This document shows positions 361-50,584 of a stretch of 51,054 nt of DNA, piece after piece (the stretch's first letter is position 1; the number at the start of each line of letters is the position of its first letter). The notes under the pieces were generated by a model. That model saw nothing but the letters and a program-made list of their open reading frames with translations, was not told the DNA's origin and searched no databases. The position numbers were made by a program, and so were the translations under genes. Source of the DNA: a virus. Where the stretch lies: positions 1 to 51,054 of the IMG/VR virus record IMGVR_UViG_3300010352_001565. One strand, given 5' to 3'.

Positions 361-1388
361 CGGTTCTATCTAGAGTGCCAAACGTTCAACTAAAAGCACC
401 AGCAAAACCAGAAGAGACTCCGAAGAATGAGCACATCTTTCCGGCTACAAAGCTGACTGAGTACGCCATCAGATGGAAGGAGCTCAATAGCAAGGGCCGA
501 CACCGTGAGGCGTCTGAGCTCCTCGAGTACATCATCATCGAATCTACGGCGATGTTCGAACGGCTGGCTCAGTACGAAGACTTTCACCGCACTGTTGACC
601 TTCCAATTCTCGTCGCCGCGGCGCAAGAAAAGGTGGTCAAGTGGCTTCTGCGCTGGAAGCCAAAGAAAGGAAAGCTCTTCACCTGGTTCTCGAAGTGTGC
701 CAAGAACGCGTTCAGGTCTGAAGTGGTAAAGGTGTCTCAGTACCGCAAGCGCTTCCACGTCACTGGTGACAACCTTGAGAAGTTCTACGGGTTCGAGGAA
801 CATGAGGTTGACAAGCACGACGCGGCAAGGCAGGTGCGCAACCGCCTGTCAGAAATTACGTCGAGATGGGGCTCTCCTGAAGAGATCGGATCGCTGCACT
901 TCCTGACCGAATGCATCATCTCTGACACCCACGACAAGCAATCGGCCATAAAGGGCTGCGCTTACGCATACGGAATTCCTATCGATTTAGCCAAGTTTTT
1001 CTACACCTGGTCGCTTGTGTCTCTACGCGACGTCATGTACGATCAGGTCTATGTTCCTTTCACAGAGCAGGACTTGTTCCGCCACCGGTTCAGCTACACC
1101 CACCTCCCAGACCTTCTCAATATCCTAACGTGGGACCAACTGCGCCGACTCATTGTTACTCGCGGCGGGATGAGGTTCAAGATCCCCACGATTGCCCAGA
1201 TTGCCCAGCTCAAAGAAGACTACAATACCTTCCGGGAGGTAGAAGCCACGGATAAAGATCCTGACTCTATCGCCGCCGTCGCGAAGAATCGAAAGAGAAC
1301 TCCGCGCACAGCGCAGGAAGCTTATGAATCCATGGTCGAAACTTTGAATCCTGACCGCTCTGGAGAATTTCAGGTGTACGAGGATTGA
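354..1388 (+). CDS. gp55-like late sigma factor (sigma-70 region 2-like). The true start is uncertain.
   Basis: TEYAIRWKELNSKG and LFTWFSKCAKNAFRSEVVK resemble T4 gp55 (LQAIIDWKTELANNKD; ITQACFNAFVQRIKK) and the sigma-70 region 2.2-2.3 pattern. The gene sits directly after the terminator. The track start is TTG, and no ATG precedes the conserved region. Confidence 0.5.
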   Translation: MFAVLSRVPNVQLKAPAKPEETPKNEHIFPATKLTEYAIRWKELNSKGRHREASELLEYIIIESTAMFERLAQYEDFHRTVDLPILVAAAQEKVVKWLLRWKPKKGKLFTWFSKCAKNAFRSEVVKVSQYRKRFHVTGDNLEKFYGFEEHEVDKHDAARQVRNRLSEITSRWGSPEEIGSLHFLTECIISDTHDKQSAIKGCAYAYGIPIDLAKFFYTWSLVSLRDVMYDQVYVPFTEQDLFRHRFSYTHLPDLLNILTWDQLRRLIVTRGGMRFKIPTIAQIAQLKEDYNTFREVEATDKDPDSIAAVAKNRKRTPRTAQEAYESMVETLNPDRSGEFQVYED

Positions 1389-1405: not shown

Positions 1406-1465
1406 AAATAAATTTACACTTTTTTGCAAAAAAGTGTTTACTTTATATTCACGTACGGTTAGATT
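1406..1465 (+). promoter_or_regulatory. T4-early-type promoter region: AAATAAAT upstream element, a 22-bp perfect palindrome, a GTTTAC -35 at 1436-1441 and TAGATT at 1460-1465.
   Basis: It shares the AAATAAAT-(T)TTACA head with the promoters at 14281, 28492 and 35614. ACACTTTTTTGCAAAAAAGTGT at 1416-1437 is a perfect inverted repeat overlapping the -35. Confidence 0.45.
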
Positions 1466-1509: not shown

Positions 1510-3021
1510 ATGGCCCAAACTATTACGGAGTTGCTAACCCCGCGTCCAGGTAGCTCGCTCTTCCTCGTATTCAAGGACCCCCACCATCGTCCCCCAGTCT
1601 TAGATGAGATGATGGAAGACATCAATCACGTCATCACGTCTATCGCGACGAGATACACCGATACGAGCTGTCCTCAGCTCCACTTCGAAGACCTCGTCGC
1701 TGAGGGACGGTTCAAGCTCGCAGAGATCATCGACAAAGGCCATCTCAGCCGCCTTCCAAACCGCGTCGAATTCTTCAAATTTTTCAAGACAGCGGTGAAC
1801 AACCACATCAAGGGGTTGGTTCACCGACACAGGTTCACGGTAAAACGCACGGGTCACCGACCTCCTCCTAAAGAAGACCGCTTCAACTTTAATCCAGACA
1901 GCCATGCTGAGTCAGGAAAACCAGTAGAGATCAGCCTTGATGACCCTGATTCACACCTGCAGATAAGCGACAGCGACATCGAGAGCTTCTCTGGAGGCGG
2001 AGGAGTCGGAGATAGCGATCTTCTGGAAGAGATAGAGCAGATCCTTAGTCCGATCGAAAAGCTTGTCATGCGCCAAATGATTGAGCCCAACCCAGAAGCG
2101 CTGACATTTGCCATGGTTGAGTCGCACATGGGGAAGAAACCGAGTTCTGTTAAAATCAAAGTCAGGTATCAGCACATGGCTGATGGTCTCGGTATTGGAA
2201 TTGACCAGTTCACCAAGATCCAAGAGTCAATTAAAACAAAGGTTAGCGAGTTTATGCAACAATCTCAAGCGTCACCAGACGCCATCAAATACAACGTGGC
2301 AATTTCTCAGCTCTCTGAGCTGTTTGGCGTTCAGATTCCTCGCTCGATTGACAAGCTAGTGATTCGCCGACTGCTCACGATCGCCGCACGCGATCAGTTT
2401 GAGAAGGTGAACGCTGACGTTCGAGAGATGCTGGCGACTGTCGGAGCAAAAGCTCCCGATGCGAAAGGTAGCATCCTCTCGTGCTACGGAGTCCTCTACC
2501 AGCGCGGCCACAAAATATGCAGTACGTGCGGAATGCTTGAGTCGTGCAAGACTGAAGCGGCTAACGTGGGTCTCGGAGAGATCACGCTGTCGCCAAAGCT
2601 TCTTGGCACAAAGCAAACGCGAATCCCTATCCTGGTTGCGAGACAACAGCCCAAGCTCCAAGAAGAGCAGAGCAGCATTCCTGCTCCTGACATCTCGTCC
2701 ATCAAAGACGACGGCGCTCCCCTCTCCAGCGAGCGCGACGACGAAATCTTTAATTTCCTCTCAGAGAATTTTCGTCAGGTCAAATACGCGAACGAACCTT
2801 ATTTCAGGCACAAGGAGCTCCCTCCAAGCAAGAAGGTCAAATACATCTTTTGGTTCCATCGCGTCAGCGGAGAACCTATGCAGCTTCGATTCTGCAACCC
2901 TCCTGCCACCATTATCGGGCGCCTTGAAAAGCGCAAGAATGGGTATTATCTTCCAAGCGCCACTCCTGCAAAGGACGCCGCTGAACTGATCAACCTACAC
3001 GCAACTGCCACATTCAAATGA
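1510..3021 (+). CDS. Second gp55-like sigma-region-2 protein, with a ~300-aa C-terminal extension containing a Cys cluster (CYGVLYQRGHKICSTCGMLESC).
   Basis: DLVAEGRFKLAEIIDKGHLSRLPNRVEFFKFFKTAVNNHIKGLV matches the sigma-70 region 2 pattern DLIQEGNIGL..KFD..RG.RFSTYATWWIRQAI. It is paralogous to the 354..1388 product. Confidence 0.55.
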   Translation: MAQTITELLTPRPGSSLFLVFKDPHHRPPVLDEMMEDINHVITSIATRYTDTSCPQLHFEDLVAEGRFKLAEIIDKGHLSRLPNRVEFFKFFKTAVNNHIKGLVHRHRFTVKRTGHRPPPKEDRFNFNPDSHAESGKPVEISLDDPDSHLQISDSDIESFSGGGGVGDSDLLEEIEQILSPIEKLVMRQMIEPNPEALTFAMVESHMGKKPSSVKIKVRYQHMADGLGIGIDQFTKIQESIKTKVSEFMQQSQASPDAIKYNVAISQLSELFGVQIPRSIDKLVIRRLLTIAARDQFEKVNADVREMLATVGAKAPDAKGSILSCYGVLYQRGHKICSTCGMLESCKTEAANVGLGEITLSPKLLGTKQTRIPILVARQQPKLQEEQSSIPAPDISSIKDDGAPLSSERDDEIFNFLSENFRQVKYANEPYFRHKELPPSKKVKYIFWFHRVSGEPMQLRFCNPPATIIGRLEKRKNGYYLPSATPAKDAAELINLHATATFK

Positions 3022-7600: not shown

Positions 7601-7691
7601 CTCGCCATAACGGTAGAGATTGATCATCAACCCTCTGAGGCGTGAATGGGGAGTGCCCCTTAGCTGAACGTGGTAAACAAACAGTTATCGC

Positions 7692-9200
7692 ATGTCGAAA
7701 ATGCTGCTTGAGGATAATTTCGGTACGTTCGTTCCAGATCGTTCAAAGATGGTAACAGAAAGTACCCCCTCGGGTAAGCAGCTTACCAGAATTCCGGGTC
7801 TTTTCTCACTGTGCGATACGCTGAACGGAAACAATCGCCGATATTCGCGCAAAGTGTGGGAAAAGAATCTCGCCACTGGATCCACGCTTCAGTCCGCCAT
7901 CTCTGCTAATGCCGCTTTCGGTTTGCTTGAACACCCGAAAGACGGACACGTCGACCTTCTCAGCCCCATCGCTATCTCCACCACGCAGGTTTCACTGAAT
8001 GAAAAAGGTGAAGTTGTCGGTGAGATTACAGTGCTCGGTACCCCTGAGGGACAACGCCTTATTGCTCTGATCGAGGGTGGATGGAATCCGACGGTGTCAA
8101 GCCGCGGGTTTGGATCCTTGGTTCGCGGGACTGACGGCGTCGACGAGGTTCAAGAAGATTATGTCTGCGAAGGATGGGACGTCGTGCTGAAACCGAGCTT
8201 TGTGAAGGCCATCTTCAATGCTCACTCGAAACCTACCTCTGAATCCACGGCTCCCGTGGCTCCTCCTGCAGCACCAAGTTTGAGGGAGTCGAAGCCCTCT
8301 TCTAGCCCATCGGCTAGCCAAAACACCCAAGTAAATCAGACCAAAAAAGTCATGAGTGAGTCAATAAAGCAGCGCTTAGCGGCGCTCCGAGCAGTCGATT
8401 GCTCGAAGATGGATCCCGCCCGTTTCGCTGGTGGGCTGGCCGAAATGAACTCGCTTCACCAGGAGGTAGCCAACTATCTTTCTGAAGATGCGAAGAGGTC
8501 GTGGGAAGCTCAGCAGCTCCACACCGATATTTCTGCCTTGGAACAGACTTGGACGCAGGCGGCGAAAGCTCCCTCTGTTCAAGCCACGAAGCTCTCTGAA
8601 GACCGGAGCAAACTCCTTCAGGTTACCTCTGCAGTTGTTGCAGCGGCTGATAAGTTCCGCACCCGTCTCGGTGAAGCTATTAACACGATCGCCGGTCAAA
8701 AGCAGCTGGTCTCAGCTGCTGTTACCCGCGGTAAATTCTGGCGCAACAAATGCGAGCAGCTTGAGTCCAGGCTGGCCGTCCTTGAACAGCGCTACGATGT
8801 GGCAACTATCGCCTTGGACAAGCTGACTGAGCGCTATCACACCGATACCGTTCCCCTTGCTCGGCGCGTTATTCAGCTCGAATTCGCTGAACAGGCCAAA
8901 ACCCCTGAGATTAAGAAAGCCCTCTCTGAAGCGACCCGCCTCAAGCACATCGTCGCCATCCGTGAGAGCATTTCGAAGCCCGCTGCTCCTGCAGCTGCGG
9001 CTACTCCGGCTGCTGCGCCTGCTCCCGCTCCTGCTACACCGGCCGCTACCCCAGCTCCTGCAGCTCCCGCTCCCGCGGCGCCTGCTCCTGCTGCTCCTGC
9101 GGCGAACGAGAACATCAACACGCAACCTTTCGCAGGTGCGCGATCCATTTCTGAGTCAGTCGCTGTTGCTCAGCGCCTGTCACGGACAACCGCCCAATAA
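7692..9200 (+). CDS. Prohead core protease (T4 gp21-like) fused to a C-terminal coiled-coil scaffold-like domain
   Basis: RRYSRKVWEK..LLEHPKDGH..SSRGFGS..DYVCEGWDVVLKPSF matches T4 gp21 RRTYPKEIWEA..GELDHPADR..SSRGTGS..DFDFTGFDLVATPS. The C-terminal 300 aa are helical, ending in an (AAPAP)n tail. The gene lies immediately upstream of the MCP gene. Confidence 0.75.
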   Translation: MSKMLLEDNFGTFVPDRSKMVTESTPSGKQLTRIPGLFSLCDTLNGNNRRYSRKVWEKNLATGSTLQSAISANAAFGLLEHPKDGHVDLLSPIAISTTQVSLNEKGEVVGEITVLGTPEGQRLIALIEGGWNPTVSSRGFGSLVRGTDGVDEVQEDYVCEGWDVVLKPSFVKAIFNAHSKPTSESTAPVAPPAAPSLRESKPSSSPSASQNTQVNQTKKVMSESIKQRLAALRAVDCSKMDPARFAGGLAEMNSLHQEVANYLSEDAKRSWEAQQLHTDISALEQTWTQAAKAPSVQATKLSEDRSKLLQVTSAVVAAADKFRTRLGEAINTIAGQKQLVSAAVTRGKFWRNKCEQLESRLAVLEQRYDVATIALDKLTERYHTDTVPLARRVIQLEFAEQAKTPEIKKALSEATRLKHIVAIRESISKPAAPAAAATPAAAPAPAPATPAATPAPAAPAPAAPAPAAPAANENINTQPFAGARSISESVAVAQRLSRTTAQ

Positions 9201-14280: not shown

Positions 14281-14317
14281 AAATAAATGTTTACAAATTT
14301 CCGTTTCGTGATATAGT
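14281..14317 (+). promoter_or_regulatory. T4-early-type promoter: AAATAAAT upstream element, GTTTACA -35 (14289-14295), 16-nt spacer, TATAGT -10 (14312-14317), ATG 6 nt downstream
   Basis: Read directly. It is near-identical to the module at 28455-28492 (minus strand). A 7-bp inverted repeat GTAGAAC/GTTCTAC flanks it. Confidence 0.55.
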
Positions 14318-14323
14318 TCTACC

Positions 14324-14698
14324 ATGATTACGAACGAAACAGTTACCAGAGACAACATCGATAACGAAAGCTTCTACAACGTGGTTCAGCTTTGCAATAT
14401 CACTGGTTATGCTGATCCTGTGGCTGCTCTCAAATCCACTGGTGAGACTGTTCGCGTAACGCGAGACAACGGAGGAAACATTACTGGCGGCGAGCTGATC
14501 AGAAAGAGCGGCAACGAAAGCGCGAGAAACCTGTTCCGCTACATTCCTTCTCACAACGAATACTCCACGGTTGACGAAGCTGCCGCTGGAATGGAGAAAA
14601 CAGATACTGCTGTTGAGCAGCTTGTCAATGGAAAGTGGGTTCATTTTCGCACTCTTACCGCCCAGGACCACGCCGACGCCGCTTGGATGCAGGAATAA
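14324..14698 (+). CDS. Hypothetical early protein
   Basis: ORF starting 6 nt after the promoter -10. Confidence 0.45.
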   Translation: MITNETVTRDNIDNESFYNVVQLCNITGYADPVAALKSTGETVRVTRDNGGNITGGELIRKSGNESARNLFRYIPSHNEYSTVDEAAAGMEKTDTAVEQLVNGKWVHFRTLTAQDHADAAWMQE

Positions 14699-14704
14699 TC
14701 GCAT

Positions 14705-14983
14705 ATGGTTAACAAAAAGCGTTTACACTCTGCGCGTTCGCGCTATATTAGCGGTATGAATACTGTTCCTAAAATTGACTTATCCGAGCTTGAGGCTGCG
14801 GTAAGCGTCATGCAGGAAGGGACTTCAATCGAAGAGCCGATGACGAATTTCAGCCTCGAGGTGATCCACGAAGGTTTACTTCGCTTGACATCAAACGTCA
14901 CCAAGAGAGTGATTAACCTCCCGCTGACGGGGCGCTGCCCAATGTCAGTGATGGCGGGATTCGCAAAACGCCAAATGGCATAG
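14705..14983 (+). CDS. Hypothetical protein
   Basis: 92-aa ORF in an operon-like array. Confidence 0.4.
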   Translation: MVNKKRLHSARSRYISGMNTVPKIDLSELEAAVSVMQEGTSIEEPMTNFSLEVIHEGLLRLTSNVTKRVINLPLTGRCPMSVMAGFAKRQMA

Positions 14984-41199: not shown

Positions 41200-41229
41200 G
41201 TTTACATTTCAGCGCTTGTGCTGTACATT
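41200..41229 (+). promoter_or_regulatory. T4-early-type promoter: GTTTACA, 17-nt spacer, TACATT, ATG 6 nt downstream
   Basis: ATTGTTTACATTTCAGCGCTTGTGCTGTACATT, then gacagt ATG. Confidence 0.5.
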
Positions 41230-41235
41230 GACAGT

Positions 41236-41637
41236 ATGAAGAACTCCTTGATGTTATCAGTCTTGCTAGCGCTGTTGTGCGGGTGCACCATTGCCCCTGT
41301 CAGGTACCCTCCTTCGTCATTTCAGCCCACATCCGAGGGAAAGACTAGCCCTCCTTTCATGCGCGGAGATCTCGTGGTCCTGAAGACTCAAGAGGTCAAT
41401 TACCCTGGAAGTGCGCGCGGCCAGGTGGTCTGTGGCTACTGGGATCCGATGTTTTGCACTTGGCGGTATCAGGTAAAATTTCCGAGAGGAGCGTGGGGAG
41501 ACTTCTACCCATACTTTGCGGGAATCCGTCAGTCGTACTACTACGAAAACTACTACGACTTCGACGTCTGGGTTTGTGGATACGAGCTTCTTCGCGTTGA
41601 CGAGCCGCGAGCGGTTACTTTTCCGTTGAGTAGGTAA
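41236..41637 (+). CDS. Putative lipoprotein expressed from an early-type promoter
   Basis: MKNSLMLSVLLALLCGC is signal-peptide-like with Cys at the cleavage region. Start moved from the track's GTG at 41218 to the ATG. Confidence 0.45.
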   Translation: MKNSLMLSVLLALLCGCTIAPVRYPPSSFQPTSEGKTSPPFMRGDLVVLKTQEVNYPGSARGQVVCGYWDPMFCTWRYQVKFPRGAWGDFYPYFAGIRQSYYYENYYDFDVWVCGYELLRVDEPRAVTFPLSR

Positions 41638-50368: not shown

Positions 50369-50584
50369 TTAACTGGTGAGCCCGTTTACCACGGGATCGC
50401 GCTTACGGTCGGCTGGATTCAGGTAGACCAGGCGGCCAGCAAGAAAGTCAATAACAAGCTTACGTGCAAACTGATTGCCAGACCGGATACCGATGATCTT
50501 AGGTTCAACAGCTTTAGTCTCTAAATTGGATGCGAGGTTATCTGGGATTCGGAAGGCAACAACTCGCTCTTTTGTATTGTCCAT
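50369..50584 (-). CDS. Ribbon-helix-helix (CopG/Arc-like) DNA-binding protein
   Basis: N-terminus MDNTKERVVAFRIPDNLASNLETKA fits an RHH beta-strand plus helix. Confidence 0.4.
   Translation of the reverse strand: MDNTKERVVAFRIPDNLASNLETKAVEPKIIGIRSGNQFARKLVIDFLAGRLVYLNPADRKRDPVVNGLTS

Follow-up and report, generated by a model that had tools for sequence, protein, structure and literature searches.

An uncultivated phage carries a 22-bp palindrome that may act as an UP-type element of a T4-style early promoter

UP elements of the rrnB P1 type place an A/T-rich block at −59 to −38 of a promoter, in which a T-tract, two bases and an A-tract precede the −35 element; the Escherichia coli consensus for −59 to −38, selected by systematic evolution of ligands by exponential enrichment (SELEX), is NNAAAWWTWTTTTNNAAAANNN, that is, NNAAA(A/T)(A/T)T(A/T)TTTTNNAAAANNN, in the passage of PMC5664571 that quotes it from Estrem et al. 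1998. T4-type early promoters carry GTTTAC at −36 to −31 and an A-rich stretch at −40 to −44 that resembles an UP element (PMC1524935), and the UP, −35, TGn and −10 elements are described as very well matched in the majority of T4 early promoters (PMC2988021). The sites of the Mor and C activators of phage Mu are 16-bp dyads centred at −43.5, in which 5-bp repeats surround a G/C-rich hexamer, and they replace a missing −35 element. Here, we analyse positions 1 to 51,054 of the IMG/VR virus record IMGVR_UViG_3300010352_001565 (51,054 nt; hereafter the window), in which a perfect 22-bp palindrome at 1416–1437 lies between two sigma-like genes, open reading frames (ORFs) 375–1388 and 1510–3021. 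With a probability of roughly 0.55, judged from sequence, the palindrome is the UP-type upstream A/T module of a T4-style early promoter for the second of these genes.

The palindrome and the promoter of ORF 1510–3021

The palindrome, ACACTTTTTTGCAAAAAAGTGT, is a perfect inverted repeat of 11+11 bp that belongs to neither strand, spans about −56 to −35 of the promoter and is centred near −45.5. It is located in a 121-bp A/T-rich gap (34% G+C, against a window mean of ~53%) bounded by the stop codon of ORF 375–1388 and the ATG of ORF 1510–3021, both on the + strand. A first-pass annotation had described the repeat at this position, the GTTTAC at 1436–1441 that its end overlaps and the AAATAAAT element just upstream at 1406–1413, all of which we confirm. 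The repeat is the longest perfect palindrome of the window, the runner-up having arms of 8 bp. Its exact sequence occurs in 0 of 100 dinucleotide shuffles, and 5 of 200 shuffles that preserve local composition in 100-bp blocks (~2.5%) yield a perfect palindrome of some kind whose arms reach 11 bp or more. The palindrome is real and moderately non-random, and a chance origin is only moderately unlikely because A/T tracts readily form palindromes.

The last two bases of the palindrome overlap the −35 region GTTTACT (1436–1442, + strand), and the −10 hexamer TAGATT (1460–1465, +) follows 17 nt past TTTACT (1437–1442). Standard sigma70 promoter geometry predicts a transcription start at 1472 (+), 7 nt past the −10, which places GTTTAC at −36 to −31 and AAAAA (1428–1432) at −44 to −40. 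Specifically, the T6 tract (1420–1425, +; about −52 to −47) matches the consensus at the T-tract position of the distal UP subsite, while the A6 tract (1428–1433, +; about −44 to −39), which ends 3 nt before TTTACT, coincides with both the proximal UP A-tract and the A-rich −40 to −44 stretch of T4-type early promoters (PMC1524935). The region from about −60 to −38 is A/T-rich and adjoins the −35 element, and the combination of GTTTAC, the A-rich −40 to −44 stretch, a 17-nt spacer and a TAnnnT −10 is that of T4 early promoters (PMC1524935, PMC2988021) and is conserved in the related loci L141–L145 described below. Unlike T4 early promoters, the promoter has no TGn, with GGT standing before TAGATT, and its −10 is weak. 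The predicted 5′ leader of ORF 1510–3021 (1473–1509, +; ~38 nt with the start placed at 1472) has no Shine-Dalgarno sequence.

Aligned with −59 at 1413, the segment 1413–1434 matches the quoted consensus NNAAAWWTWTTTTNNAAAANNN at 12 of 15 specified positions, the consensus being that of E. coli. The T-tract, the two unspecified bases (GC) and the A-tract stand in the exact register of the consensus as quoted. Hits to it at 12 or more positions number 23 in the window and 2.4 in shuffles, and several of the others cluster directly upstream of GTTTACA promoters (14267+, 35627−). The palindrome departs from the quoted consensus in its distal A-rich part (−57 to −53), which is replaced by ACAC, and from UP elements in general, which need no symmetry, in forming a perfect 22-bp dyad. 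Estrem et al. are said to have defined in 1999 a proximal-subsite consensus, AAAAAARNR, which AAAAAAGTG would presumably match in full.

The same element recurs at the same register in independent promoters. In IMG/VR, the 16-mer core CTTTTTTGCAAAAAAG was found in 89 stretches, which reduce to 75 unique contexts and 150 orientations. TTGAC or TTTAC stands 2–3 nt past the core in 12 of the 150 orientations, from ~8 unrelated promoter families, where ~1 is expected, and the remaining offsets from 0 to 65 give 0–3 hits each (mean ~0.5); the offset in the window is 2. All 12 orientations have a −10 at 16–17 nt, which is TATAAT or TACAAT in six. Furthermore, in L131, an unrelated contig from a metagenome, TTTGCA-17-TATAAT is immediately preceded by the same 20-mer. 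This recurrence indicates that T6-GC-A6 is a recurrent upstream element of sigma70-type phage promoters. One unrelated phage (L033, IMG/VR 3300006802_000502) carries AAAAAAAATCACTTTTTTGCAAAAAAGRTA-TTGACC three times within 6 kb (477, 5313 and 5670), as a family of promoters that share T6-GC-A6. In 3 of 8 promoter-associated families with a right flank other than GTG, the T-tract follows CAC. Apart from unrelated hits, a 20-mer scan of metagenomes returned one 4.4-kb JGI contig of the same phage (L132 = L093), which holds an identical copy of the locus (99.97% identity across 3.1 kb).

We infer that GTTTACT, the 17-nt spacer and TAGATT would form a promoter dependent on host sigma70, starting near 1472 and giving ORF 1510–3021 its own early transcription start. 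Two alpha-subunit C-terminal domains (alpha-CTDs) of the host RNA polymerase would dock in the minor groove at T6 (−52 to −47) and A6 (−44 to −39) and would strengthen the core promoter, which lacks TGn and whose −10 is mediocre. The dyad symmetry would be mostly a by-product, T6-GC-A6 being self-complementary by construction: the right flank, GTGT, would be part of the extended −35 of the promoter family (RTG-TTTAC), and the left flank, ACAC, the end of an orphan promoter half, AAATAAAT-TTTACA(C).

That orphan half, AAATAAAT followed by TTTACA (1406–1418, +), ends in the three bases, ACA, with which the left arm of the palindrome begins. A second promoter reading from TTTACA (1413–1418) was rejected, there being no acceptable −10 at 16–18 nt. 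AAATAAAT was also considered as a box resembling a T4 late promoter; it is instead the usual upstream element of the GTTTACA promoters of this phage, and its counterpart AAATAAATG-TTTACA is present at 14290+, 28482− and 35604−. A minus-strand promoter with the palindrome as its UP element was likewise rejected, as no −35/−10 pair lies leftward.

Sister promoters and related loci

Scanning the window with the pattern TTTAC-N15-18-TAnnnT identified six further promoters of one family, reading aAATAAATG-TTTACA-N16/17-TATAGT/TATATT/TACATT. Three are on the + strand (14290–14326, 14722–14758 and 41201–41238) and three on the − strand (39493–39456, 35604–35569 and 28482–28446). In all six, an ATG that opens an ORF of 55–314 amino acids stands 6 nt (once 4 nt) past the −10, a spacing which implies leaderless transcripts; the six promoters look like sources of leaderless early mRNAs, in which the phage apparently differs from T4. 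TTTACT-17-TAGATT, with a predicted leader and no TGn, is a weaker member of this family, whereas TGA stands before TATAGT in the sister promoters at 14290+ and 28482−. Many genes of the window lack a Shine-Dalgarno sequence. Between 14291 and 14704 the longest ORF, of 137 amino acids, is on the − strand; a + strand ORF of 124 amino acids (14324–14698), whose start coincides exactly with the leaderless position of the strong promoter at 14290, is more likely to be the gene.

No near DNA match was found among deposited phages in the phage collection, and a single-protein scan of viral contigs for close relatives returned nothing. An alignment-based scan retrieved 25 loci, in most of which the two sigma-like genes overlap without a spacer. 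Of 28 related loci, 20 have the two genes overlapping or abutting, indicating that the spacer is a feature of one subclade; the intergenic promoter is likewise restricted to one subclade. A conserved order of RecA/UvsX-like gene, metallopeptidase gene, small ORF, gp55-like gene and second sigma-like gene is seen in L001–L003, L094–L118 and L141–L145.

Within the subclade that has the spacer, the promoter is kept and the dyad is lost. The closest relative, L141 (upstream gene 83% identical), reads ATTATTTTTGCAAATTTTTG-TTTACT-17-TACAGT. L142–L144 (70%) read ACACAAAAGTG-TTTACA-16-TAGAAT, or, from stop codon to start codon, TAG-TCAACACAAAAGTG-TTTACA-16-TAGAAT-8-ATG, and L145 (69%) reads ACATAAAAGTG-TTTACA-17-TAGAAT. 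The relatives thus retain A-tract-GTG-TTTAC-N16/17-TAGAAT without the dyad, the −10 being TAGAAT in L142–L145 and TACAGT in L141. In particular, L141 retains TTTTTGCAAA at the same distance from the −35 and has just an 8-bp palindrome, TTTGCAAA; five changes in its right arm are accompanied by no compensating change in the left. L142–L145, in which 14–25 nt separate the stop codon from the −35, contain no dyad. Retention of the promoter in these loci indicates that the right arm of the palindrome (A-tract-GTG-T) is ordinary promoter sequence. Two other relatives with a spacer have dyads of their own. L002 has an A/T dyad, GCAAAAATTTTTGC, at 2886–2899 (about −66 to −53), 16 nt upstream of GTTTAC, and L117 has 15-bp arms, AAACAAAATTGTTTG and CAAACAATTTTGTTT, at about 2272–2318, the right arm running into GTTTAC; these dyads are unlike the window palindrome in both sequence and position.

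Operator, hairpin and chance as alternative readings

The first-pass annotation had proposed that the palindrome is the footprint of a dimeric repressor or activator and gives the second sigma-like gene dedicated control. Such an operator, which we regard as unlikely, could be a class II or Mor/C-type activator site centred near −45, with the activator contacting sigma region 4 or the alpha-CTD, or a repressor site occluding the −35. The adjacent gp55-like protein (ORF 375–1388) might bind it through its Mor/C-like C-terminal domain, or the binder might be another phage or host protein. The dyad is perfect, its centre (about −45.5) lies close to that of the Mor site at Mu Pm (−43.5), it touches the −35, and a Mor/C-like domain is encoded next door. 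However, the further copies expected of a regulon or of multiple operators are absent from the window, which covers 51 kb of a 222-kb source contig: a search for a second copy found none at up to 3 mismatches, half-sites are unenriched (15 matches at up to 2 mismatches, compared with 15.0 expected), and no A/T-rich CAC-N10-18-GTG site exists besides 1416–1437. The dyad is neither conserved nor covarying at the orthologous promoters of L141–L145, although the putative binder is 69–83% identical there and the promoter itself is kept; the dyads of L002 and L117 differ from it, and in most relatives the two genes overlap and leave no spacer. Nor does 1416–1437 have the make-up of a Mor/C activator site: it is 22 bp rather than 16 bp, its core is A/T-rich where the 5-bp repeats of Mor sites enclose a G/C-rich spacer, and a family-typical −35, TTTACT, is present rather than replaced. 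Moreover, ORF 375–1388 of the window fails to match Pfam Mor even at E ≤ 10, and as a sigma-like protein it would act as a monomer inside the holoenzyme. The ribbon-helix-helix protein suggested as a binder, a 71-residue ORF at 50369–50584 (−), matches no Pfam or PHROG family even at E ≤ 10. The earlier proposal is supported in part: the palindrome is real, but a dedicated dimeric operator is unsupported, and position, register and sequence fit an UP element and the A-rich −40 to −44 stretch of T4-type early promoters (PMC5664571, PMC1524935). A narrower form, in which a lineage-specific operator is bound as a dimer by the Mor/C-like domain of the gp55-like protein or by another phage factor, seems to us very doubtful; if true, it would constitute a feed-forward switch, with one phage sigma-like protein in direct control of the second one's promoter. 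Sites of the CRP or IHF type are presumably a poor fit, judged against their consensus sequences.

The palindrome might also act as an RNA hairpin at the 3′ end of the upstream transcript, stabilising that end or working as a weak intrinsic terminator or attenuator, and so partly insulate the two sigma-like genes. Like a Rho-independent terminator, it would form a hairpin downstream of a stop codon, beginning 28 nt past that of ORF 375–1388, with a 9-bp stem and a 4-nt loop. The sequence after it, UUACUUUAUAUU, is rich in U (5 of its first 8 nucleotides), and it is common for a promoter to follow a terminator. Unlike such terminators, the hairpin has a weak stem made largely of A-U pairs (−6.3 kcal/mol, two G-C pairs), with 12 of 200 shuffles folding equally well, and its U-run is interrupted; the four clear terminators of this phage reach −18.7 to −21.8 kcal/mol and have uninterrupted T-runs. 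The hairpin was not called by a terminator scan, has no Rfam match and shows no compensatory change in relatives, most of which co-transcribe both genes from overlapping frames. Termination as the main role is ruled out on energetics, and the hairpin reading as a whole is highly improbable. Chance formation of the palindrome in an A/T-rich spacer, where it would do nothing that A/T-rich DNA does not, is rather improbable too. Such an origin agrees with the 2.5% of composition-preserving shuffles that reach 11-bp arms, with the single copy and with the lack of conservation in relatives, but it leaves aside that the palindrome stands to the −35 in precisely the register of UP elements, that the same 16-mer occurs at that register in unrelated phage promoters, and that the proximal A-tract-GTG is conserved in relatives and sister promoters.

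Several observations weigh against the UP-type element that we favour. The symmetry is perfect over 22 bp, reaching past the A/T tracts by 4 bp at either end, and just 2.5% of composition-matched shuffles attain such arms. ACAC at −56 to −53 is not predicted by the UP consensus as quoted, which was derived from E. coli and is applied here to a phage that may have another host (PMC5664571). The other members of the promoter family in the window lack a dyad, and the A/T palindromes near GTTTAC in L002 and L117 could point to selection for symmetry.

The flanking genes and the early gene set

Both flanking genes show similarity, in fold or sequence, to T4 gp55 or to sigma domain 2. The first-pass annotation had called both gp55-like; sigma-like holds for the two, and gp55-like for ORF 375–1388 only. 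ORF 375–1388 (+) encodes a gp55-like sigma factor whose C-terminal region is Mor/C-like. Pfam Mor is matched by 18 of its 35 homologs (best E 6e-6, residues 234–313), one of them above the gathering score, and Sigma70_r2 by 10 of the 35, all below threshold. ORF 1510–3021 (+) encodes a 503-residue sigma-like protein with sigma2-like and sigma4-like domains, a four-cysteine motif of invariant residues (C325, C337, C340 and C346) and a C-terminal alpha/beta domain that resembles YjbR/YdhG and the MotA DNA-binding domain. The public gene call for it, P0001 (470 amino acids), starts at M34, and homologs conserve residues before M34. Matches to Pfam Gp23 and Peptidase_S77 identify a T4-type major capsid protein and a prohead protease in the window. 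The phage is only distantly related to T4, and the metagenomic contigs that hold homologs of the flanking genes are ~200–250 kb long.

Further features surround the gene starts. An 11-nt direct repeat, AAATTTTCGTC, is present twice in tandem in the leader (1484–1494 and 1495–1505, +), ending 4 nt before the ATG at 1510, and in L002 a similar sequence, ATTTTTCGTC, precedes the homolog's ATG by 8 nt; the tandem repeat could be a translational operator or enhancer. A 27-codon ORF (1470–1553, +), with its ATG 4 nt past TAGATT, overlaps the start of ORF 1510–3021 in another frame and is probably not a real gene, although it would be a leaderless small ORF if transcription started at 1470. Elsewhere in the window, AGTTATC(g/a)c stands directly before the starts of the prohead protease gene (motif at 7684, start at 7692), of ORF 29245 (29237, +) and of ORF 41144(−) (41155, −), and GATAAC is present in two other intergenic regions (10728 and 31320). 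The GTTATC motif may be a phage-specific promoter or start signal; the three gene-start cases are too few to judge.

In itself, the element would be of little weight, one more UP-type element at a T4-style early promoter of an uncultivated phage. For annotation, it would mark an early start, dependent on the host polymerase, for a sigma-like gene that in most relatives overlaps the gp55-like gene and is co-transcribed with it. It also suggests caution, in that self-complementary UP elements made of a T-tract and an A-tract can pass for operators. The context outweighs the palindrome: a conserved pairing of divergent sigma-like proteins, one gp55-like with a Mor/C-like region and the other combining sigma2-like and sigma4-like domains with the four cysteines and a MotA-CTD/YjbR-like domain, in a phage with an apparently leaderless early gene set.
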